Assembly: GCA_963748215.1 (NCBI GenBank)
Contig: CAVVHS010000009.1
Location: 256,001-320,000 of the forward strand
Length of the DNA: 64,000 nucleotides
DNA from: an uncultured Gammaproteobacteria bacterium
GTDB lineage: Bacteria; Pseudomonadota; Gammaproteobacteria; UBA9214
Direction: 5' to 3'
Made by a program: the position numbers and the translations under genes. Shown here piece by piece: positions 54,571-63,617 of the stretch (position 1 is the stretch's first letter; the number at the start of each line of letters is the position of its first letter). The notes under the pieces are model-generated. The model did not search any database. It had not been told where the DNA came from and saw only the letters and a program-made list of their open reading frames with translations.

Positions 54571-54646
54571 GGGTCGTTAGCTCAGTTGGTAGAGCACCGG
54601 ACTTTTAATCCGATGGTCGTTGGTTCGAATCCAACACGACCCACCA
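54571..54646 (+). tRNA. tRNA-Lys (UUU)
   Basis: GGGTCGT acceptor stem, TAGCTCAGTTGGTAGAGC D-arm, anticodon loop CTTTTAA, GTTCGAATCC T-arm, encoded CCA; 76 nt. Confidence 0.98.
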
Positions 54647-54689
54647 TTAAATCAATCAGTTACCTCTGATTTTCCAAATCAGTAAAAAC

Positions 54690-54947
54690 TGATTGTGGGG
54701 ATTTTGCGGGGATTAACCGTAAACCTTCCTCGTTGGTAAAATTTCGCCTGTAATAAAATCAATTGGTTGCACGTTAGTAACAGACTCGAACCGTTATTCT
54801 CTGGACCAAAAATCCGATGCTCGTATAAACACGCAGATGTTGTGAAAAATGCATGAGTTTTATCTCGAACTCCATGACATGCATGTATAGATCAATGACT
54901 GTGGTACAGATATGTAACCCGCCATTCAATGCTTAACCACTATCGCT
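54690..54947 (+). repeat. 258 bp direct repeat, copy 1
   Basis: Identical by eye to 62066..62323. Confidence 0.95.
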
Positions 54948-54961
54948 GGAGGAGAGCCTGT

Positions 54962-55390
54962 ATGAAGAAGATCAAGGAGGTTTTGGATGCCAAGGGTCGT
55001 GATGTACTGTCGATTGCCCCGGAGGCCTCTGTATACGAAGCCGTCACTCTCATGGCCGAGCGGGGAGTCGGGGCGCTGCTGGTGATGGAGGGTGACAGGT
55101 TCGTCGGCCTGGTTGGCGAAAGGGATTGTCTGTTGAAGGTGATGCTGGAAGACCGATCCCCGCGAGAGACCGAGGTCAAACAATTAATGGCGAAAAATAT
55201 TCTCTGCGTCAAACCCGAGCAGACGGTGGAGGAAGGGATGGCCTTGATGACCGATAAAAGAATCCGCCATCTACCGGTCGTCAAAGGAGATCGGGTGGAA
55301 GGCATCATTTCCATCGGTGACCTGGTCAAGGCGATTATTGCCGACCAGCAGTTTGTGATTAAACAGCTGGAACACTACGTCACCAGCTGA
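54962..55390 (+). CDS. CBS-domain pair protein
   Basis: MAERGVGALLV, MTDKRIRHLPVV, GIISIGDLVK; GGAGGAG RBS. Confidence 0.92.
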   Translation: MKKIKEVLDAKGRDVLSIAPEASVYEAVTLMAERGVGALLVMEGDRFVGLVGERDCLLKVMLEDRSPRETEVKQLMAKNILCVKPEQTVEEGMALMTDKRIRHLPVVKGDRVEGIISIGDLVKAIIADQQFVIKQLEHYVTS

Positions 55391-55495
55391 CTCAAGGCTG
55401 AACGCGCTCTAAAGCCGTACATGTCCGGGTTCGATGCCTGGAAAAAGCAATGCCGAGGCTGCCATCACCGTGACCACGGCCAGGAACACCAGCAG

Positions 55496-56656
55496 CTAAC
55501 GGTTACCGGCGTAGCCGCTGAGTTCCAGGTAACCTCTGCCAGTGTGACTGCCGGATACATCGACCGCGCCTTCCCAGTAACGCACGCTGTGATCCATCTG
55601 CTGATCATCAAGCAATGCCTGGACTTCAAGATCCAGCTGAAACCCGTCCACCTGCAGGCGCCAGCTAACCGGATAGCGCGCACCGTCTTCGGCCTGCCAG
55701 TAACGCAAGGGTGTGAGCTTTACCTGGTCGGGCAGCAGGGTGCGAACGCCGCCGTCTTTTTCCACCAGGCTGCCACGGCTGAACGGGTGCGCCTCGCCCT
55801 GCTTGTTGCGCAGCTGGTAGTACATCACCTCTCGGCCATCATCCAGTTGCAGGGCAAACCAGTCCCATCCGGCCTGGGTCCTGTCAAGCGCGGAGCTGGA
55901 CCACTCGTGATCCATCCACGAATCGCCCTGCACGGTGTAAACCGTATCGCCAGTGCGCAGCTCGCCGCGTGTCGGCAGACGCGTAAAAGAATAGTAGTAA
56001 GAGGCATTGCCGGGTGTTGCACTTTTGCGCGACAAGCCGTGATCGCCCTGCAGGACCAGTGGCTTGTCGCCTGACTGCAGTTGCAGCGAAAAACCGGTGT
56101 CCTCGTTCTGCGCCGATACGGTCAACGGAAACAGGCCGGTATCCGCATGCATCGACCAGGGCCCCAGCCACACTTCATACGGCGCTACGCGGGCGCCGGC
56201 GAGGCCTGCCGCCGCGCGTGCAAAACGTTCGGCCGAATAATGCCTGGCTTCGTCGATGTCGCTGATCGCCATGTGCCCCATGTAGATCTGGTTGGTTCGC
56301 CACATCGAATCCTTTACAGGTTCCCCGGGGCGCAGCCCGACACGAAACAGCGTGAACTGGTAACCGAACCGACGCCCGCTTTCACTCTGCAGATTACCTG
56401 TCAGGTACCACCACTCGGTGGCGAATTCGGGATGTGCGCCGTGATCCTGCGGGAACTGGAAATCCCGTGGTTCAAGCGCACGCGCAAAACCGGGATCAGG
56501 TTCCGCTCCCAGCACCTGGTCCACGCGCACCATCGGCGCGGTTGCCGGCGGCCCTGTTTCGCAGGCCGATACAAGCAACGCCAGCAACAGCAGCAGGCAG
56601 CGCACTGTCAGTCTTCCCTCAGTTGCGGTGCCGGGTCGCGATGCGCGGAACGCCAT
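55496..56656 (-). CDS. AttH/CrtC-like lipocalin-fold lipoprotein
   Basis: Lipobox LVSAC, FPQDHGAHP, EWWYLTG, SYYYS, WMDHEW, GWDWF, YWEG, GYLELSGY. Confidence 0.88.
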   Translation of the reverse strand: MAFRASRPGTATEGRLTVRCLLLLLALLVSACETGPPATAPMVRVDQVLGAEPDPGFARALEPRDFQFPQDHGAHPEFATEWWYLTGNLQSESGRRFGYQFTLFRVGLRPGEPVKDSMWRTNQIYMGHMAISDIDEARHYSAERFARAAAGLAGARVAPYEVWLGPWSMHADTGLFPLTVSAQNEDTGFSLQLQSGDKPLVLQGDHGLSRKSATPGNASYYYSFTRLPTRGELRTGDTVYTVQGDSWMDHEWSSSALDRTQAGWDWFALQLDDGREVMYYQLRNKQGEAHPFSRGSLVEKDGGVRTLLPDQVKLTPLRYWQAEDGARYPVSWRLQVDGFQLDLEVQALLDDQQMDHSVRYWEGAVDVSGSHTGRGYLELSGYAGNR

Positions 56657-59109
56657 GCCGGGTAGACAGCGGCAAGCCCCGCAGCCAGCAGCCCGACCAG
56701 CAGCGTCTGCAGCAGCAGCCCGCTATCAACGCTGAATGGCATTGTCCAGCCGAATGCACGCCGTTGCACCGACTGGATCAGGACCCACGCCATGAGCACG
56801 CCGGTGGGAATTGCCACACACGCGGCCAGCAGTCCCATCAGCAAGGACTCGCCGCCGATCAGTCCTGCGATCTGGCCGCGTGTCAGTCCCAGCGCACGCA
56901 ACACGGCATACTCCCTGGCGCGTTCAAGCTGCAGCGCCATCAAGGCGCTCAACACACCGATAAACGCGACAGTCAGGGACACGGCGCGCAACACTTCGGT
57001 GACGCGGAAGGTGCGGTCGAAGACGGCCATGGATTCGTTCAGTATGGCGCCTGCGGGCGTCTGCACGATGGCGTAGCGCGCGGCGAGTTCACTCAAATCG
57101 CGGCGCATTTTATCCACTTCGCCGTTACGCGCAAACAGGGCCAGCGTGTTGACCTGCTGCTCGGGCCAGTACTTGCGGTAGACGGTTTCATCCAGAAAGA
57201 TGCGGCCGTGTTCGCTGGCATAGTCGCGGAATACAGCCGCCACCTGAACGGCCAGAGGGCCTCTGGGTGTTGGCAGTTCCAGGCGCGAGCCGGGCGTCAG
57301 GCCGAGGTGGTAGGCCAGTGGTTCGGAAACCAGCACCGCACCCCTGTCAAATTCCTTCCATGCCGACCGTGCACCGCTCAACAGCACAAAGCCGCGGCGC
57401 GACGGCGCGGCCAGGTGCGCCCCGACGAGTTCCACGCGCCGGCCGGCCAGCGGCAGCTTGCGCTCGCTGTAACGGCTGATCGCCGCCACGGTCCCCAGCC
57501 GGGACACTTCGTGCAGGACGGCTTCAGGCAGATATGCACCTTCATCAAAGCCTTCGGCCGCTACATAGAGGTCTGCACTTAACAGGTCGCTCAGCCAGGT
57601 GTTGACCGAACCACGCATGCTTTCCACCATGACACCGACACCGACGCTGGCTGACAACGCCACCATCAGTGCCGCAACGGCAATACCCAGGCGCGACAAA
57701 TGCCGGTCCAGATCGCGCACGCCCATCCGCCAGATACCGGGCAAGGACGCACGCGCCAGTAGCCGGTACAGCACGCGGATCATCAGGGGTGTCATCATGG
57801 CCGCGCCCAGCACCAGCGCAAACAAGCCGGCAAAGCTCATGATCACGCCGCCCGGTAAAACCAGTGCCAGCAGCAAGCCCGCCGACAACAGCACCAGACC
57901 GAGCAGCGCGCACAGGGGGACGCCGCGCTGCACGGCCTGCTCCAGTGCCGCCCGCGAGAGTGTCGTCAACGGGGGCGTACGTGCGGCTTGCCAGGCGGGC
58001 ACCAGTGTCGCCAGCAGGGTCGCCACCACGCCCAGGCTGGCGGCGATCAACAGTGACCTCCAGTCCAGGTGCAGGGCCGTCACGCTGACCGTGTAGTAAA
58101 GGTCGCTGACGGTAGCCGCCACCAACCGGGTCAGCCCCTGGCCCAGCCACACACCGAGCAATATCCCGATCAGCGTGCCGAGCACGGCAACGATCGCGGC
58201 TTCCAGCAGGATCAGGCTGAACAGTTCCCGCGGCGTCACACCGATGGCGCGCAGCCGCCCGAACAGGTTGCGCCGCTGCACCATGGAAAAGGTCATGGCG
58301 TTGAAAATAAGAAACATGCCGACCAGCAGCGCCAGCAGGCTCATCGCGGTGAGGTTGAGCTCGAATGCCGCTGACAGGCGTGTCACACCCTGCGCCTGTT
58401 CGGCGACTGTCTGCAACTGCACGCCGGCGGGGATGCGCTGCCTGACCCAGCGTTCGCCGGCGGCATCCAGTATCAGGTCCACGTAGCTGAGTTGCCCGTT
58501 CATCTCCAGAATGGATTTGGCGGTGGCGATATCGACCAGCAGCAGGTCGTCACCGGCAGTGCTGTGCCGCGTATCGATACGCAGCACATCGAGCATGGTG
58601 GACCTGCCCCGGTGAACGATGTCCAGCCTGTCACCTGCAGCGACATCGAGCGCGCGCGCCGTTGCCGCGCCAAGCACCAGCGCACCTGCCTGTGTCAGCC
58701 AGTCTGCGGTGAAGCCCGCGCCGGTCGACACCTCGGCAAGCTGACTGCGGAACGGCGCCTCGGCAAACAGGTCAAAGCCCACCAGGTGATAACGTCCCGT
58801 GCCGCCTTCGACCCTGACCCAGCCGCTCACCACCGGCGCCATGGGCGGTGCGCCGGGCTGGCGTTGCAGGCTGATATACACCTCATCGGGTAGCTCGGCG
58901 CCGGGCACGGCAAGGCGATGTGTGGCTTCGCCCTGCAACTGTCGCGCGGACAGCTCGAAGGCGGCACGCGCACCGCTGTTGGCCAGGTCCACCGCCAGTA
59001 CCACCGCAACACCCAGTGCGATGCCGGACAAGGCCAGCAGACCCTGCCAGCGATGGCGCAACATATAGCGCAGTCCGGCACGCAACAGCAATGGCGAGAA
59101 ATATCTCAC
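56608..59109 (-). CDS. FtsX/MacB-like ABC permease with two repeats (AttF/G-like)
   Basis: GIALGVAV, LLVDIATA, NLTAMSLLALLVG, LRAIG / LRALG. Confidence 0.9.
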   Translation of the reverse strand: MRYFSPLLLRAGLRYMLRHRWQGLLALSGIALGVAVVLAVDLANSGARAAFELSARQLQGEATHRLAVPGAELPDEVYISLQRQPGAPPMAPVVSGWVRVEGGTGRYHLVGFDLFAEAPFRSQLAEVSTGAGFTADWLTQAGALVLGAATARALDVAAGDRLDIVHRGRSTMLDVLRIDTRHSTAGDDLLLVDIATAKSILEMNGQLSYVDLILDAAGERWVRQRIPAGVQLQTVAEQAQGVTRLSAAFELNLTAMSLLALLVGMFLIFNAMTFSMVQRRNLFGRLRAIGVTPRELFSLILLEAAIVAVLGTLIGILLGVWLGQGLTRLVAATVSDLYYTVSVTALHLDWRSLLIAASLGVVATLLATLVPAWQAARTPPLTTLSRAALEQAVQRGVPLCALLGLVLLSAGLLLALVLPGGVIMSFAGLFALVLGAAMMTPLMIRVLYRLLARASLPGIWRMGVRDLDRHLSRLGIAVAALMVALSASVGVGVMVESMRGSVNTWLSDLLSADLYVAAEGFDEGAYLPEAVLHEVSRLGTVAAISRYSERKLPLAGRRVELVGAHLAAPSRRGFVLLSGARSAWKEFDRGAVLVSEPLAYHLGLTPGSRLELPTPRGPLAVQVAAVFRDYASEHGRIFLDETVYRKYWPEQQVNTLALFARNGEVDKMRRDLSELAARYAIVQTPAGAILNESMAVFDRTFRVTEVLRAVSLTVAFIGVLSALMALQLERAREYAVLRALGLTRGQIAGLIGGESLLMGLLAACVAIPTGVLMAWVLIQSVQRRAFGWTMPFSVDSGLLLQTLLVGLLAAGLAAVYPAWRSAHRDPAPQLRED

Positions 59110-59114
59110 GGCAT

Positions 59115-59852
59115 TCAGTCTGCCGCTACCTGCCCGTGGCTCAGACGCAGAACCCGGTCGGCCGCCTGAGCAACATATGTGCTATGCGTTACCAGCAGCA
59201 TGGTCGTTCCCTGCCGCCTGGCCAGGCCGGTGAGCAACTCGATGATCCGGCCGGCGCTATCCTCATCCAGGTTGCCGGTGGGCTCGTCGGCCAGCAACAG
59301 GTCGGGCCGGTGCACCAGCGCGCGGGCGATGGCGGCGCGCTGCTGTTCACCGCCCGACAGTGTTTCGGGAAAACGATGCTCCAGACCGCCGAGTCCGACA
59401 TCTTCCAGCAGATCGGCAGCGCGTTGTTGCGCTGCGGAATTGGCATTACCCAGCAGTTCCAGCGGCAGGGCAATATTCTCACCCACCGTCAGGGTCTGGA
59501 TAAGGTTGAAAAACTGGAATACGAAACCGATACGCCGGCGCCGCAACAGGGTGCGTTCGGGTTCCGCCAGTGCGTGTACATCGACACCGTCCAGCCACAC
59601 GTTACCGCTGTCTGGGCTGTCGATACCGCTGATCAGGTTGAGCAGGGTCGTCTTGCCACTGCCACTGGCCCCCAGCAAGGCAACCGTTTCGCCTTTCCCG
59701 ACGCTGAACGTCAGCCTGTCGAATACCACTTGTCGCGTGCTGCCGGACCAGTACACCTTGGCTAGATTGTCGACACCTACCATGCTCACCTGGATACTGC
59801 CCGCGTTGCCAAACAATTCCGTTGACATCATACACTGCTGCACGTCATGCAC
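59115..59852 (-). CDS. ABC transporter ATP-binding subunit (LolD/AttE-like); start uncertain
   Basis: GASGSGKTT, LSGGEQQR, ADEPTGNLD, LVTH. Confidence 0.93.
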   Translation of the reverse strand: MHDVQQCMMSTELFGNAGSIQVSMVGVDNLAKVYWSGSTRQVVFDRLTFSVGKGETVALLGASGSGKTTLLNLISGIDSPDSGNVWLDGVDVHALAEPERTLLRRRRIGFVFQFFNLIQTLTVGENIALPLELLGNANSAAQQRAADLLEDVGLGGLEHRFPETLSGGEQQRAAIARALVHRPDLLLADEPTGNLDEDSAGRIIELLTGLARRQGTTMLLVTHSTYVAQAADRVLRLSHGQVAAD

Positions 59853-59898
59853 TTACCCCTGTGCCAGGAGGGGACCGGGGTCCACTTCAATGAATAGA

Positions 59899-59992
59899 GA
59901 ATAGGGGACAAACCGCGTTTTTCAATACGGAAGAATAGGGGACAGACCACGTTTAGGGAAGAATAGGAAGAATAGGGGACAGACCACGTTTT
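59899..59992 (+). repeat. Three direct copies of GAATAGGGGACAGACCACGTTT
   Basis: Copies at 59899 (degenerate), 59933 and 59970; the last abuts the transposase stop codon. Confidence 0.9.
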
Positions 59993-60682
59993 TCAATCTG
60001 ATTTGGCGGGTCTTCCCGGGTTTCTACGTGTAACACGTCGTTGCAGCATGTGGGAGATCTCAGACTTAAAGCGTTCATTACCCAGAGCATAGTTACCATG
60101 CGAAGCAGTCCGGATCTCGGCAAGCAGATCGGGGTCTATAGCTGTGTGAAACAGGCCACGGTAATTGGCAAGACGCGTTTCTTCACTCCCTCCGAGTGCC
60201 AGGTATTCTGCGTGTGGCGTCAGGCCGTCGTGCTGTGCGCCTTGACCGTTAATCCTGTAACTTGACCACTGATATTCTGCCGGGTGCTCTACCATGACTG
60301 CGCGAACCGGGTTCAATTCGATATATCGGTAACAGGCAAGTACATAGTGACTTTCCTGAACCAGACAGGAGCGAAAACGGCCTTCCCAAAGCGTTCCGCT
60401 GCGCTGGTAGCGACGGTTACTGTATTGGACGTAACGCTGACCAAGCTGTTTCATGAGCAGAGCGGCGCTATCACGCGCTGCTGGGGTAAGGAGCAGGTGT
60501 ACATGATTCGTCATCAGGCACCAGGCATGTACACTGCAACGATATCTAGCGCCCTGCTCAGCCAGGGTATCAAGGTAATACTGGTAATCGCAGTTGTCGT
60601 AGAAGCAGGGGCTGCGATTATTGCCGCGCTGGATGATATGCCAGGGAATGCCAGGAATGACCAGGCGGGCACGGCGTGGCAT
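59993..60682 (-). CDS. HUH Y1 transposase (RAYT/TnpA-REP-like)
   Basis: MPRRAR..HIIQRGNNR, CLMTNHVHLL (HUH), LWEGRF, YIELNPVRA (catalytic Tyr), YQWSSY. Confidence 0.92.
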   Translation of the reverse strand: MPRRARLVIPGIPWHIIQRGNNRSPCFYDNCDYQYYLDTLAEQGARYRCSVHAWCLMTNHVHLLLTPAARDSAALLMKQLGQRYVQYSNRRYQRSGTLWEGRFRSCLVQESHYVLACYRYIELNPVRAVMVEHPAEYQWSSYRINGQGAQHDGLTPHAEYLALGGSEETRLANYRGLFHTAIDPDLLAEIRTASHGNYALGNERFKSEISHMLQRRVTRRNPGRPAKSD

Positions 60683-60782
60683 AAGAATAACCTTGTTCAA
60701 TTTAGAGTAAGAGTTGAATGGTGAATGCATGAATACGGCGGTTATGTAGTGAATGTGCGTGAAGGTGCGTCAGTAATTGACG

Positions 60783-60800
60783 AAAACGTGGTCTGTCCCC
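60783..60800 (-). repeat. Inverted copy of the transposase-flanking repeat
   Basis: AAAACGTGGTCTGTCCCC is the exact reverse complement of 59975..59992. Confidence 0.9.
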
Positions 60801-61054
60801 CTTTTTCAGATCGATAATGCGGGACTCACGAAGTACTACGATGAAATAGTCTCAGTCGAGGAAACTTGAAGTTTCAAGTCGGATGCTAAGGTCCACCGGT
60901 CGGTTATGGGGGTGACCTTGAATGTTCGCTGATGGACGTAGATTCGCAGTCCCAACTCAAGACGTCATACCGTGATGGCACCACGGGGGAAACCCAGGGG
61001 ACGTTCGTCAAATAGTCAAAATAAAGTTAAAACAGAAATAGCGGATTAATTATT

Positions 61055-61453
61055 CTATTTGTCGGCCAAACTTTCCCACAAGCCTCTGGGTGTGATTATG
61101 GGTAGCCCTTCCACGCTTTCCAAATTCAATAAGGCCTTATCTCCTGTGACGAACACATTGGCGTTGCCCGCCAGCGCGGCGGCAAGAATTGCTTCGTCAT
61201 CAGGATCAGGAAGTTTCGGCAAAGGGTGTTCGGCGGCTATAACCTGACCCTCTGTGCGGAGTAGTGCAATAAAGCCATTAGTGATCGCTTCTGTCTGACC
61301 CAGTTTTTCTGGGAGGATGCGTTGTAGTTCTCTAAAGACGGCTTCGGAGATTAATAGATCGTGGGACTGGAGAACCACTTCAAAGAGTTCAGCGCACAGT
61401 CCACGTGTTGTCAAGGCGCTGGCCAATACATTGGTATCCAGAAATATCCGCAC
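61055..61453 (-). CDS. PIN-domain (VapC-like) toxin
   Basis: FLDTNVLASAL, PDPDDEAIL, FVTGDKALL; TAGTG overlap with the antitoxin. Confidence 0.9.
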   Translation of the reverse strand: MRIFLDTNVLASALTTRGLCAELFEVVLQSHDLLISEAVFRELQRILPEKLGQTEAITNGFIALLRTEGQVIAAEHPLPKLPDPDDEAILAAALAGNANVFVTGDKALLNLESVEGLPIITPRGLWESLADK

Positions 61454-61665
61454 TAGATGTCCCGAAAGACATCTTCATCGGTAACATACCCGGCAGCCTC
61501 CGCCAGTGGTAGCGCCTTATGGCGTAAGGCACGAAAACGTTCTACGGCGATGCGTTTACGCAGCATCTCTCTTGCCAGATCACTTTTAGTGCGGTGCTGG
61601 GCCTTGGCTAGCTGGTCAAGGTCTTTTTCCAGTTCGTCGTCGATACGGATGGTCAGGGTGCCCAT
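61453..61665 (-). CDS. CopG/RHH antitoxin
   Basis: MGTLTIRIDDEL...KSDLAREML...TDEDVF. Confidence 0.88.
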   Translation of the reverse strand: MGTLTIRIDDELEKDLDQLAKAQHRTKSDLAREMLRKRIAVERFRALRHKALPLAEAAGYVTDEDVFRDI

Positions 61666-61691
61666 GGGGTCCTCCAAGCAAAGAAGTTTAT

Positions 61692-61712
61692 CTGTATTAC
61701 ATTGTAGTACAG
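61692..61712. promoter_or_regulatory. Putative autoregulatory operator of the TA operon
   Basis: Near-palindrome CTGTATTACATTGTAGTACAG about 27 bp upstream of the antitoxin ATG. Confidence 0.6.
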
Positions 61713-61891
61713 CGACGGGCGGGGAGACAGCCTTTAATGCGGATTACTGGTTTAATGACAGAAAAGGTGCTGAAAATGCCTGCGGGAGTTTTGCGGGACT
61801 GGGTGCAGCACCGTTATGCACGGTACTGCATTTTAGGCAACGGACGCCCCGGTATTATGTTATATAAAACAATTAGATAGGTCGTGATTCT

Positions 61892-62022
61892 CGGACTTTT
61901 AATCCGATGGTCGTTGGTTCGAGCCGAGGACGACGCAGTCGGCCGAGACAACAGCGTCGCATCAGCGACGCTGACCCCGAAGGGGCGAGGGCGCAGCCCG
62001 AGTAATCCAACACGACCCACCA
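61892..62022 (+). other. Displaced 3' part of tRNA-Lys (att site) with an 82 bp insert in the T-loop
   Basis: CGGACTTTTAATCCGATGGTCGTTGGTTCGA [61923..62004] ATCCAACACGACCCACCA equals tRNA 54598..54646 plus the insert. Confidence 0.92.
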
Positions 62023-62065
62023 TTAAATCAATCACTTAATTCCGATTTTTCATCCCGGTAAAAAT

Positions 62066-62323
62066 TGATTGTGGGGATTTTGCGGGGATTAACCGTAAAC
62101 CTTCCTCGTTGGTAAAATTTCGCCTGTAATAAAATCAATTGGTTGCACGTTAGTAACAGACTCGAACCGTTATTCTCTGGACCAAAAATCCGATGCTCGT
62201 ATAAACACGCAGATGTTGTGAAAAATGCATGAGTTTTATCTCGAACTCCATGACATGCATGTATAGATCAATGACTGTGGTACAGATATGTAACCCGCCA
62301 TTCAATGCTTAACCACTATCGCT
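62066..62323 (+). repeat. 258 bp direct repeat, copy 2
   Basis: Identical by eye to 54690..54947. Confidence 0.95.
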
Positions 62324-63617
62324 CTTCAGGCGCCTTCCAGGATTGTAATCGGTCGAGCGTATCGATGCTGCCGATCAGCTTTCGAGCGCGTCGCAGCCGT
62401 TCCATGGTGTGCTCTCGCTGATCTTTTGGTAAGTCTTCCAATCTCCGTTCTGCGTCAGCGAAGAACGCCTCGAGTTGTTTTGACGTGGCCCATGTTTCGA
62501 TGATCTCGAGCAGTTCCTCTTTGCTGTCTTTAAGGGCCTTTGCGGCACGTCTCTCCGCCTCTTCGCGATGCCATTGCTCCATTTGGGCGGCCCAGCGCTG
62601 GCGCTCCCGTTCTGCTTCGCGTTCGCCTTCTTCAACCAGGCGCGCGATGTCAATCGTGGCTTTGGTCAGCGCGCGTACAATCGCGGGGATTCGGGTGGAG
62701 AGATCGCGATGGTTTGTTTCCCGCCATTGCTGGGTCCATTGCGCGCGCGGGTAGGGTGAATAGGCTTGCAGACATAATCGGCCGGTCGGGAAATCTCGCC
62801 TGCTGGTCCAGCCGCTATCCGCTACATAGCGGCCACGCCGTTGCGGGACGTAGTCACTCACCCGTACATACTCACCTTTGACATAGCGCACCTCGACGTT
62901 CTCGGACAGCTCGATGATGGTAAGACCAATCGCGACGGTCCCGATATAGACGACGGTGCTGCGCTGCGGTGACCAGAGGTTGTTGTAATGGTGTTGTTTC
63001 TCCGGATGCTCCCGTTCATCGACTGTTGCCCTGTGAAATTGCTCTGTATTCGGTGCGATGAGTACCCGGTGCCCGCGCGTTTCCAGTGCAAGAAAGAGCT
63101 GGTTGGCAAAGGACAGGGCCTTGTCCAGGCCGGTTTTCGTCACAACCAGATCAATGAGCAGCCTTTTCGCGGGCTTCAGGTAGCCTGCGGAATAGGAGAG
63201 CCGGCCTACCTCGAAGTGTGATTTCACCTCGGTGGTCAGCGGATGTCGATCCGGGAGCGGTTGGTGATGTTTGTGTGCTTTGCGGTCTTTCTTGTCCGGT
63301 GGCTTCGGTTGCGGTCGTGCGCGCCTGGGTGGTGTGCCATCGCGTGACCACTCGAGTGGATCGCCGGGTCGCGCTTCCGGGAAGGCTGGCTGTGTGGATG
63401 CCTTACCGACTGCCAGTTTTGCCCAATAGCCGCGCTCAGGTCGTGGCACGTTGAGCTGGGTACAGACCCGGGCCATGTAGCTTGATGAAACACCGAACCG
63501 GGCCGCCACCTTGAGCATCGGCTCGGCCCAGACGAGTGCGTACAGCGCTTCCCGTGTGACTTTCGAGTCGTCTTGCGTGGGGTCTGGTGGTGAGTGCTTA
63601 CCGTTTCCGGGATTCAC
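62316..63617 (-). CDS. Island-associated hypothetical protein with an N-terminal HTH-like region
   Basis: 433 aa; TREALYALVWAEP..KVAARFGVS...VPRPERGYWAK, C-terminal coiled coil. Confidence 0.75.
   Translation of the reverse strand: MNPGNGKHSPPDPTQDDSKVTREALYALVWAEPMLKVAARFGVSSSYMARVCTQLNVPRPERGYWAKLAVGKASTQPAFPEARPGDPLEWSRDGTPPRRARPQPKPPDKKDRKAHKHHQPLPDRHPLTTEVKSHFEVGRLSYSAGYLKPAKRLLIDLVVTKTGLDKALSFANQLFLALETRGHRVLIAPNTEQFHRATVDEREHPEKQHHYNNLWSPQRSTVVYIGTVAIGLTIIELSENVEVRYVKGEYVRVSDYVPQRRGRYVADSGWTSRRDFPTGRLCLQAYSPYPRAQWTQQWRETNHRDLSTRIPAIVRALTKATIDIARLVEEGEREAERERQRWAAQMEQWHREEAERRAAKALKDSKEELLEIIETWATSKQLEAFFADAERRLEDLPKDQREHTMERLRRARKLIGSIDTLDRLQSWKAPEER

Follow-up and report, generated by a model that had tools for sequence, protein, structure and literature searches.

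Why is the T-loop of a displaced tRNA copy split by a short, highly structured insert, and is that insert a peculiarity of one genomic islet or part of something more general? The question arises in a stretch of 64,000 nucleotides (nt; hereafter the window) from an uncultured gammaproteobacterium of the GTDB lineage UBA9214 (assembly GCA_963748215.1, contig CAVVHS010000009.1, positions 256,001 to 320,000), in which a tRNA-Lys(UUU) gene is followed, beyond an islet of other genes, by a displaced 3' copy that carries an insert of 82 nt. An initial annotation, drawn from the letters of the window, proposed that the insert could lock the islet in place, since excision would break the tRNA-Lys(UUU) gene, or else that it is a tiny mobile element tolerated only in spare tRNA copies. 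We argue below that the 82 nt are very probably the structured core of an RtT repeat, a family known since the 1970s and among the oldest described bacterial repeats, for which, to our knowledge, no origin or function has been accepted.

Results

The interrupted copy and its insert

The tRNA-Lys(UUU) gene, the sole tRNA gene that ARAGORN and Rfam find in the window, has an uninterrupted T-arm (GTTGG-TTCGAAT-CCAAC), and its displaced copy agrees with it exactly (31/31 and 18/18 nt) except for the 82 nt between GTTCGA and ATCC, just as the initial annotation had it. Homology to the gene runs from the anticodon stem onward, as was also described, and GGTCGT at 61880-61885, to the left of the copy, is a possible remnant of the acceptor 5' strand. 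The insert has no target-site duplication, and its point of entry can be fixed only to within one base (A58/A59). Identity with the gene locus continues past the tRNA end for ~300 bp, a feature that had gone unmentioned: positions 54628-54927 and 62004-62303 are 97% identical (repeat D1), and blastn aligns contig positions 310628-310947 and 318004-318323, right of the insert, at 96.9% over 320 bp. Genome-wide, ARAGORN finds 43 tRNA genes in an assembly that is 95% complete, with one gene each for Lys(UUU) and Lys(CUU); a copy count of tRNA-Lys(UUU) had been called for in the annotation.

From left to right, the insert (61923-62004) consists of hairpin 1, CGAGACAAC, hairpin 2, CCCC-GAA-GGGG, CGAGG, GGGC-GCA-GCCC and GAGTA. 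Folded as DNA it reaches -24.4 kcal/mol, against a mean of -15.6 for shuffled sequences (z -4.33; 0/200 shuffles as good), and all four stems named in the annotation are present in this minimum-energy fold. Chance hairpins are excluded by the z-score together with the eight conserved copies described below. A group I or other intron was likewise rejected, given that the insert has only 82 nt, that Rfam reports no ribozyme family match and that the working gene lacks it, and an assembly artefact is unlikely because the eight copies have diverged from each other and related copies exist in other genomes.

The insert as a very probable RtT core

The full Rfam model of RtT (RF00391, 1-130) aligns over 61870-62022 with 32.7 bits, which is under the gathering score of 45, at an E-value of 2e-4 in a 651-nt search and of 6.7e-5 in a 221-nt search, and in a search at a permissive threshold it is the sole Rfam family that matches the region with E < 0.01. 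In this alignment the GGUUCGA, CGAGA.A.C, CCCGAAGGGCGAGG and CGAGUAAUCC of the model fall on the matching motifs of the insert. Searching the whole genome for RtT gives 18 hits, including six of the eight Lys copies, and seven non-Lys copies pass the gathering score (45.9-61.2 bits, with 61.2 bits for the copy at tRNA-Glu). By BLAST, the Lys core is 76% identical to canonical RtT copies over 93-99 nt (E 4.5e-13 and 9.7e-9).

The repeats of Escherichia coli K-12 have the same anatomy; the family has 16 RtT matches there, including four at tyrTV and another five in the region of the lysT operon. The tyrV repeat reads ...AAGGTTCGA, a 68-nt core and ATCCTTCCCCCACCACCA, i.e., a tRNA-Tyr T-arm split at the same place, and its motifs, between GGTTCGA and ATCCTTCCCCCACCACCA, come in the order seen in the Lys insert. 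With the RtT/RttR repeats of tyrT, the Lys copies share the position of the core between GGTTCGA and ATCC, followed by the tRNA's own tail ending in CCA, the order of motifs (CGAG, hairpin, CGAGA.A.C, hairpin, CCCGAAGGG, CGAGG, hairpin, GAGTA), and the orientation, which is always sense behind the tRNA gene. They differ from the family in that their left part is a faithful 27-31-nt piece of tRNA-Lys (anticodon arm to T-loop) and not the family's GGAUGAGAAC segment, and in that the units lie 1.7-25.6 kb apart with genes between them instead of forming 170-180 bp tandem repeats. Furthermore, transcription is known in E. coli, where one RtT unit is annotated as a small non-coding RNA (rttR), whereas the Lys array is known here from sequence alone. 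Set against what defines a member of the family, the window copy thus has its own tRNA tail starting inside the T-loop and the core motifs and hairpins with compensatory change, but neither the 45 bits of the gathering score nor ~170-180 bp tandem units directly behind a tRNA gene.

The structure itself is conserved. Alignment A2 comprises 27 distinct cores, three of them from E. coli; 13 pairs are predicted by RNAalifold, and nine of these have pair-keeping changes on both sides. Compensatory changes are present in hairpins 2 and 4, in the former at 5/6 pairs; hairpin 2 is the most variable, with one of its pairs occurring as GC 10, CG 6, UA 5, UG 5 and AU 1 times, and the CCC-GNA-GGG hairpin is nearly invariant across the 27 cores. 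Triloops of the type C-GNA-G, which are unusually stable in DNA, account for 40 of the ~85 predicted loops in these cores, and the top and bottom strands of the core fold about equally well.

Copies are widespread. An exact-pattern scan (GGTTCGA, gap, CCCGNAGGG, gap, GARTAATCC) of one genome per species returned at least 119 stretches, which are spread over numerous groups of gammaproteobacteria (Enterobacterales, Marinobacter, Ectothiorhodospiraceae, Chromatiaceae and others) and include one Rhodocyclaceae record; the annotation was right to mention similar inserts in other gammaproteobacteria, which are RtT. Among the matches listed there are 141 copies. For 106 of them the retrieved DNA includes a tRNA gene no more than 400 nt upstream, and 77 of these 106 carry the tail of that very tRNA (18 nt behind the core, at most 2 mismatches). 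In the canonical copies among the matches listed, pairing between the tail and the bases before GGTTCGA is poor (mostly 3-4 of 5, 2 being fixed by the pattern), so that their left part, unlike that of the Lys fragments, is not a faithful tRNA copy. A blastn search of the core against phage and plasmid collections gave no match, which is weak evidence for a query of 93 nt.

Within this genome the core also follows nine other tRNA genes, and at eight of them (Gln x2, Ser x4, Glu and Val) it forms units of ~170-200 bp, often in tandem, without cargo. We conclude that the window element is a diverged RtT in a new setting, where it marks the junctions of islets without a tyrosine integrase, and that the T-loop insert is the defining anatomy of a known family and not a private feature of the first islet.

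In canonical RtT copies we also observed a conserved 7-nt loop, (A/G)TGAGAA, between varying stems (L061 340-366; E. coli L074 3170-3190, minus strand). Read by eye, it is shaped like an anticodon loop, with U33, a purine at 37 and the 'anticodon' GAG, and suggests that RtT as a whole may descend from a fragment comprising the 3' two-thirds of a tRNA.

A full-text literature search, which did not extend to the original tyrT-repeat papers and supplements, turned up no account of RtT as an insertion into a T-loop or as the junction of an island. In one study, E. coli under stress is reported to show raised 'mobilome' coverage over tyrT-rttR, which its authors link to RNA and the stress response (10.1101/2024.07.17.603846), and in another some attenuator candidates are likened to rtT (PMC2965389).

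Eight filled junctions and many empty ones

The window copy is one of eight on the contig, all on the plus strand and always at the same position of the T-loop. Their cores start at contig positions 317923 (the window copy), 328290, 335117, 360709, 362398, 375494, 400670 and 408680 and are 100, 100, 95, 96, 95, 92, 83 and 79% identical to the window copy in that order; each sits between ...GTTCGA and ATCC with a Lys-like tail, which matches the last 18 nt of the gene at 83-100%. With spacings of 7.4, 10.4, 6.8, 25.6, 1.7, 13.1, 25.2 and 8.0 kb, the eight interrupted fragments delimit islets across 98 kb behind the sole tRNA-Lys(UUU) gene found, and ordinary genes (e.g., ferrochelatase) follow the outermost. 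All eight displaced fragments bear the core and the gene itself is free of it; a terminator-like hairpin with a T-run directly precedes six of the eight.

The islets encode no tyrosine integrase that we could find. Open reading frames (ORFs) were called over contig positions 308-432 kb, and 101 of the 114 were scanned (310,929-416,773; the 13 omitted lie beyond the array); together with three border-crossing ORFs that were added to the Pfam scan, this makes 104 array ORFs, none of which matches PF00589. A six-frame PF00589 search of the whole genome gave 5 matches, all of them outside this contig: two fragments and three full-length matches, of which two have ~310 aa and one has an internal TGA. 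Nor was there an integrase among 59 array ORFs chosen from the 136 called in stretches of six related genomes.

Related genomes show that the core forms a DNA module of its own, which is either there or missing at a single exact position in the T-loop. Close homologues of the 'type A' right end of the first islet occur in G015 (three), G023, G024 and G012 (this genome is labelled G000, and other G numbers denote related genomes) and are followed by an uninterrupted Lys fragment. In alignment A1, the 6 uninterrupted orthologues from these four genomes show a clean gap in place of the 82 nt, and a seventh type-A orthologue (G024) retains only the first 10 nt of the core. The 'type B' right end, found at 6/8 junctions here, bears the core in G008 and G015 and is joined to an uninterrupted fragment in G051 and G050; these two ends exclude the idea, for which 8/8 other cases spoke, that the core and the type-B right end always go together. 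In G023, the left end of islet 2 and its 433-aa gene (83% identical protein) lie behind an uninterrupted fragment. Of 37 genomes of the genus, 24 have the uninterrupted Lys T-arm segment, at 43 places in total and at no more than four in any one genome (in G000, in the gene only), and the Lys-type core start is present at 15 places in 7 genomes, absences in this census being soft because many of the genomes are incomplete. Seven of the 15 places are in G000, whose eighth core is too diverged for the pattern, and three of the eight hits outside G000 were judged to belong to other tRNAs (AGTTCGA starts or non-Lys tails).

Mosaic fragments and their breakpoints

The right end of fragment 1 (type A) is only 65% like that of fragment 2, and its left tRNA part equals the gene; its core, its tail and the 60 nt behind them agree with fragment 2 at 98-100% in identity matrices, and the next 120 nt of the islet-2 left end that were compared are 100% like the stretch behind the tRNA gene. 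The left part of fragment 6 best matches tRNA-Met(CAT) (27/37) up to GGTTC, and then come the core and a Lys tail; a tRNA-Met array with this kind of right end is present on another contig. In fragment 4, the T-stem half GTTGG is joined to CCTTC, the allele of most related genomes, and G051 has an uninterrupted hybrid fragment, GTTGG..CCTTC.

These hybrids bear on where the islets recombine. A T-stem mismatched as in GTTGG..CCTTC cannot have served in a tRNA. It is hard to obtain from a crossover in the anticodon loop, as the initial annotation had proposed, and expected from one between the two halves of the T-stem. That proposal is made doubtful by the G051 hybrid and the two chimeric core-bearing fragments of the array, which place breakpoints between the T-stem halves and point to the T-loop, where the core sits, as the likely crossover site of the islets.

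Which tRNA genes are followed by the core

The core is found mostly behind tRNA genes with one particular T-arm. A core-preceded tail copy (GA(G/A)TAATCC) lies downstream of 9/10 tRNA genes with the T-arm GGTTCGAATCC (the exception being tRNA-Glu(CUC)) and of 1/33 others (tRNA-Arg(CCG), T-arm TTCGATTCC), a bias that is a pattern and not a statistical test because the genes share one genome and the repeats are related. Four tRNAs with other T-loops, namely Met, Val(CAC), Asn and Thr(UGU), also have displaced kb-scale fragments, 6 in all, and none of these is interrupted. Read by eye, all true RtT copies of the genome sit at a T-loop-like GGTTCGA..ATCC adjoining a tRNA tail.

Several arrangements at other tRNA genes deserve mention. 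On contig C8 (225176-225330; L064 663-830, minus strand), a full tRNA-Gln(UUG) 5' part (acceptor stem to TTCGA) is followed by an RtT core and a degenerate tail, so the core can occupy a whole duplicated gene and not 3' fragments alone; this copy lies just upstream of an intact tRNA-Gln gene that has its own RtT unit. At L031, L032 and L040 (in G019, G003 and G013), RtT cores lie ~130 nt upstream of tRNA-Ser(GCT), in the order of a core ending in GAGTAA, a Ser fragment from the anticodon stem, the T-loop, a second core and a non-matching tail. The distance from tRNA-Ser(GCT) to tRNA-Arg(ACG) is 10 kb here (contig C5 2666-13108) as opposed to 70-200 nt in three related genomes, and displaced Arg(ACG) fragments with RtT units occur on contig C6 at 879-885 kb, where no Arg gene is nearby.

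Islets, cargo and other features

The features are collected in Table 1. The content of the array varies between related genomes, and the outermost islet 8 looks decayed because a heavy-metal P-type ATPase and an AcrB-type transporter (contig 400991-408371) are each split over at least two ORFs.

Table 1. Positions in the window of the tRNA-Lys gene, the interrupted copy and neighbouring features, with the cargo of the islets
Feature	Position	Strand	Evidence
Intact tRNA-Lys(UUU) gene	54571..54646	+	ARAGORN; Rfam tRNA 76.7 bits
Islet 1, conserved 'left end'	54647..54947	+	97% identical to the stretch behind the interrupted fragment; holds paired motif GTGGGGATTTTGCGGGGATT
Islet 1 cargo: CBS protein, CrtC-like, MacB/FtsX permease, 843-bp unit with Y1 (RAYT-like) gene, RHH+PIN pair	54948..61779	.	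Pfam
Islet 1, 'type A' right end	61780..61891	+	Alignment A1; homologous ends in four related genomes, then uninterrupted tRNA-Lys fragments
Displaced tRNA-Lys copy, left part (anticodon stem to T-loop TTCGA)	61892..61922	+	31/31 nt as in the gene, CGGAC...GGTTCGA
RtT core (82-nt insert)	61923..62004	+	Rfam RtT alignment; fold; motif order as in E. coli tyrT repeats
Displaced tRNA-Lys copy, right part (T-loop AT, T-stem 3' strand, acceptor 3' strand, CCA)	62005..62022	+	18/18 nt as in the gene, ATCC...CCA
Islet 2, conserved 'left end'	62023..62323	+	Mosaic by identity matrices
433-aa ORF, first gene of islet 2	62316..63617	-	No family in Pfam, NCBIfam or PADLOC
Islet 2 cargo: 433-aa protein of no family, AbiE, type I Wadjet set JetABCD			
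Islet 3 cargo: MscK-like channel, second copy of 843-bp Y1 unit, Phd/ParE			
Islet 4 cargo: Usp proteins, ion exchangers, P-type ATPase, Mrp-like subunits			
Islet 5 cargo: FKBP isomerase			
Islets 6-8 cargo: redox, secretion, signalling and efflux genes, some in pieces			

Two ORFs were considered as hidden recombination genes and set aside. The 433-aa ORF (BLASTP 348/417 identical, 83%, to the gene at the same place in G023) shows no recombinase motif by eye in addition to having no assigned family, and a small ORF of the conserved left end, a candidate excisionase, has no Pfam match at E <= 1. At left and right islet ends we noticed a doubled motif, G(Y)GGGR-N-TTTTGCGGGR (window 54690-54720, 62066-62095 and 61783-61803), which is found again on other contigs, where islets end behind fragments of tRNA-Met and tRNA-Arg, and looks like arm-type binding sites for a recombinase not encoded here.

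The 843-bp unit comprises a 245-aa Y1/RAYT-like gene flanked by 18-bp inverted repeats (GGGGACAGACCACGTTTT). Only two units exist genome-wide, at window 59959-60801 (contig 315959-316801) and contig 333292-334134, and they are 99.9% identical; the Y1 gene of islet 1 scores 70 bits with NCBIfam REP_Tyr_transpos, under the cut-off of 80. Two further copies of a 29-nt repeat lie just outside the unit of the window (59898-59997).

Discussion

We favour an explanation in which the RtT core occupies displaced tRNA-Lys fragments that mark the junctions of eight tyrosine-integrase-free islets. Recombination at both borders of the core, whether as gene conversion or as homing-like copying, would spread it among those non-functional tRNA 3' copies that have a TTCGAAT T-loop, and selection would remove it from working tRNA genes. 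Since the chimeric fragments place the islet breakpoints in the T-loop, the core probably splits the old crossover site of the islets, and its likely effect would be to disable secondary att sites. Taken as a whole, we regard this explanation as probable, if by no means assured; the copying mechanism and the disabling effect on att sites are its more tentative parts, for which we see almost as many grounds for belief as for doubt. It stays close to the second suggestion of the initial annotation, an element tolerated only in spare tRNA copies, which fits the present/absent polymorphism of the core.

A number of observations weigh against this explanation. The Lys copies score only 28.7-35.8 bits against the gathering score of 45, and two of the eight are absent from the RtT listing at E <= 0.01. 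We found no enzyme, circular form or recent transposition, copying being inferred from the mosaic sequence alone, and recombination among related islet ends could yield the same mosaics. To the left of the core only 31 nt are homologous (87-100%), and to the right of the shared patch identity is no more than 78%, which makes a poor substrate for RecA-mediated conversion. The placement of the breakpoint in the T-loop depends on three hybrid fragments that were possibly made by later recombination, and fragment 8, whose T-stem is complementary across the core (GCTGG..CCAGC), fits plain insertion or selection for pairing in RNA or single strands. E. coli RtT is transcribed, as its annotated rttR indicates, leaving room for a role as RNA. 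Finally, neutral copying does not account for 8/8 filled sites here when those of relatives are mostly empty; the filling of all eight would fit biased copying, selection or an origin from islets that already bore the core.

The arrangement invites comparison with tandem arrays of islands at tRNA genes with displaced 3' fragments, as known from Islander-type islands and tycheposons. Like these, the Lys array has an intact tRNA at its end, from which displaced 3' copies are lined up; the island ends are conserved and share a repeated motif (TTTTGCGGG) on either side, and the cargo includes defence, toxin-antitoxin and stress genes, with a content that varies among relatives. It differs in that no integrase was found in the eight islets or among the 59 ORFs from six related genomes, and in that every displaced fragment is split at the T-loop by an 82-nt structured module. 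Measured against the att fragment of an integrase-borne island, the window copy does repeat the 3' part of the tRNA directly, at the far end of the inserted DNA, but there is no integrase inside the island and the tRNA copy is interrupted.

A different relation between core and islets is conceivable, although we consider it unlikely. The RtT unit could be the minimal form of a non-autonomous, T-loop-directed element, which in the Lys islets would carry cargo; a recombinase encoded elsewhere would join core-ATCC-tail to TTCGA-ATCC-tail, to the right of the core, so that the gene is never interrupted and each insertion adds a core-bearing junction. The shared boundaries of the tandem units of E. 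coli and G000 and of the Lys islets (all start with ATCC and the tail and end with the core) speak for it, as do the presence of the core at 8/8 junctions, including the outermost beside core genes, the own-tRNA tails in 77/106 copies, the strong bias to the TTCGAATCC T-loop and the variable array content among related genomes. However, both types of islet end also occur with uninterrupted fragments, which makes the core dispensable for islet residence; no candidate recombinase was found, with none of the three full-length tyrosine recombinase matches of the genome near the array; an identical cassette at two places was not seen; and the core has no hit in the phage or plasmid collections. Extended further, RtT units would be the empty form of a gene-cassette system aimed at the T-loop of tRNAs with TTCGAATCC, the 98-kb Lys array its loaded form, and the four C-GNA-G hairpins the single-strand recognition site of a recombinase encoded elsewhere, an idea that we put forward with little confidence. 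If true, it would give RtT both a function and an origin and make the Lys array a form loaded with Wadjet, AbiE, toxin-antitoxin and ion-stress genes.

The hairpins also recall elements that move as single-stranded DNA, and the core could be a small IS200/IS605-derived (PATE/REP-like) insertion, placed 3' of TTCGA by a Y1/HUH enzyme without target duplication. The insertion is precise and without duplication, hairpins lie near both ends, C-GNA-G triloops with their stability in DNA make up 40 of the ~85 predicted loops, and two Y1 (RAYT-like) genes are found inside the array. Yet every copy found is at the tRNA T-loop position and none is dispersed, the cores cluster by locus with no recent jumps, the 843-bp Y1 unit has only two copies whose ends (GGGGACAGACCACGTTTT) are unrelated to the core, and only one orientation occurs although the palindromic T-loop offers TTCGA on both strands, all of which leaves this origin improbable. 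REP/REPIN sequences with their RAYT and the mini-elements of IS200/IS605 are likewise short, GC-rich, non-coding hairpin modules without target duplication, and Y1-type genes lie in the Lys array itself; those elements are, however, dispersed in intergenic space and built on one palindrome, whereas the core is tied to one tRNA T-loop position and has four distinct hairpins, and the ends of the local Y1 unit are unrelated to it. Nor does it have the copies at unrelated sites sharing only a 4-5-nt target, or the ends related to a resident Y1 element, that characterise a PATE.

Equally hard to sustain, in our view, is a role as an RttR-like functional RNA, in which fragment and core would be transcribed and form a tRNA-like minihelix (acceptor and T-stem strands around a four-hairpin domain) acting in tRNA processing or the starvation response. 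One E. coli unit is annotated as the small RNA rttR, compensatory changes accompany the conserved structure, the fold predicted for the 131-nt fragment pairs GGTCGTTGG with CCAACACGACC, and the T-stem of fragment 8 is still complementary across the core. Against this, 6/8 Lys fragments begin directly behind the terminator-like hairpin with its T-run, no promoter-like site precedes the core at 61300-61922, the T-stem halves of fragments 4 and 6 are mismatched, pairing of the tail with the bases before GGTTCGA is poor in the wide sample (mostly 3-4 of 5, including the 2 fixed by the pattern), and the top and bottom strands fold about equally well.

Least credible of all is the lock with which the annotation began, i.e., an insert maintained by selection because excision of the islet through the anticodon loop would leave the sole tRNA-Lys(UUU) gene with the interrupted 3' half and be lethal: the gene is single-copy, homology to it begins at the anticodon stem and 8/8 fragments are interrupted here and mostly uninterrupted in relatives, but neither the array nor the contig has an integrase, the hybrid fragments place the breakpoint at the T-loop and not left of the insert, 320 bp at 97% identity right of it permit a harmless loss of the islet, and the core also stands behind other tRNA genes without cargo between units, where there is nothing to lock.

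Returning to the explanation that we favour, the locus shows the RtT core as a separable module, limited to tRNA copies with a TTCGAAT T-loop and with breakpoints at its borders. RtT is thereby tied to the biology of tRNA-linked islands, and none of the eight junctions of this array would be found by programs that map islands through uninterrupted tRNA fragments.

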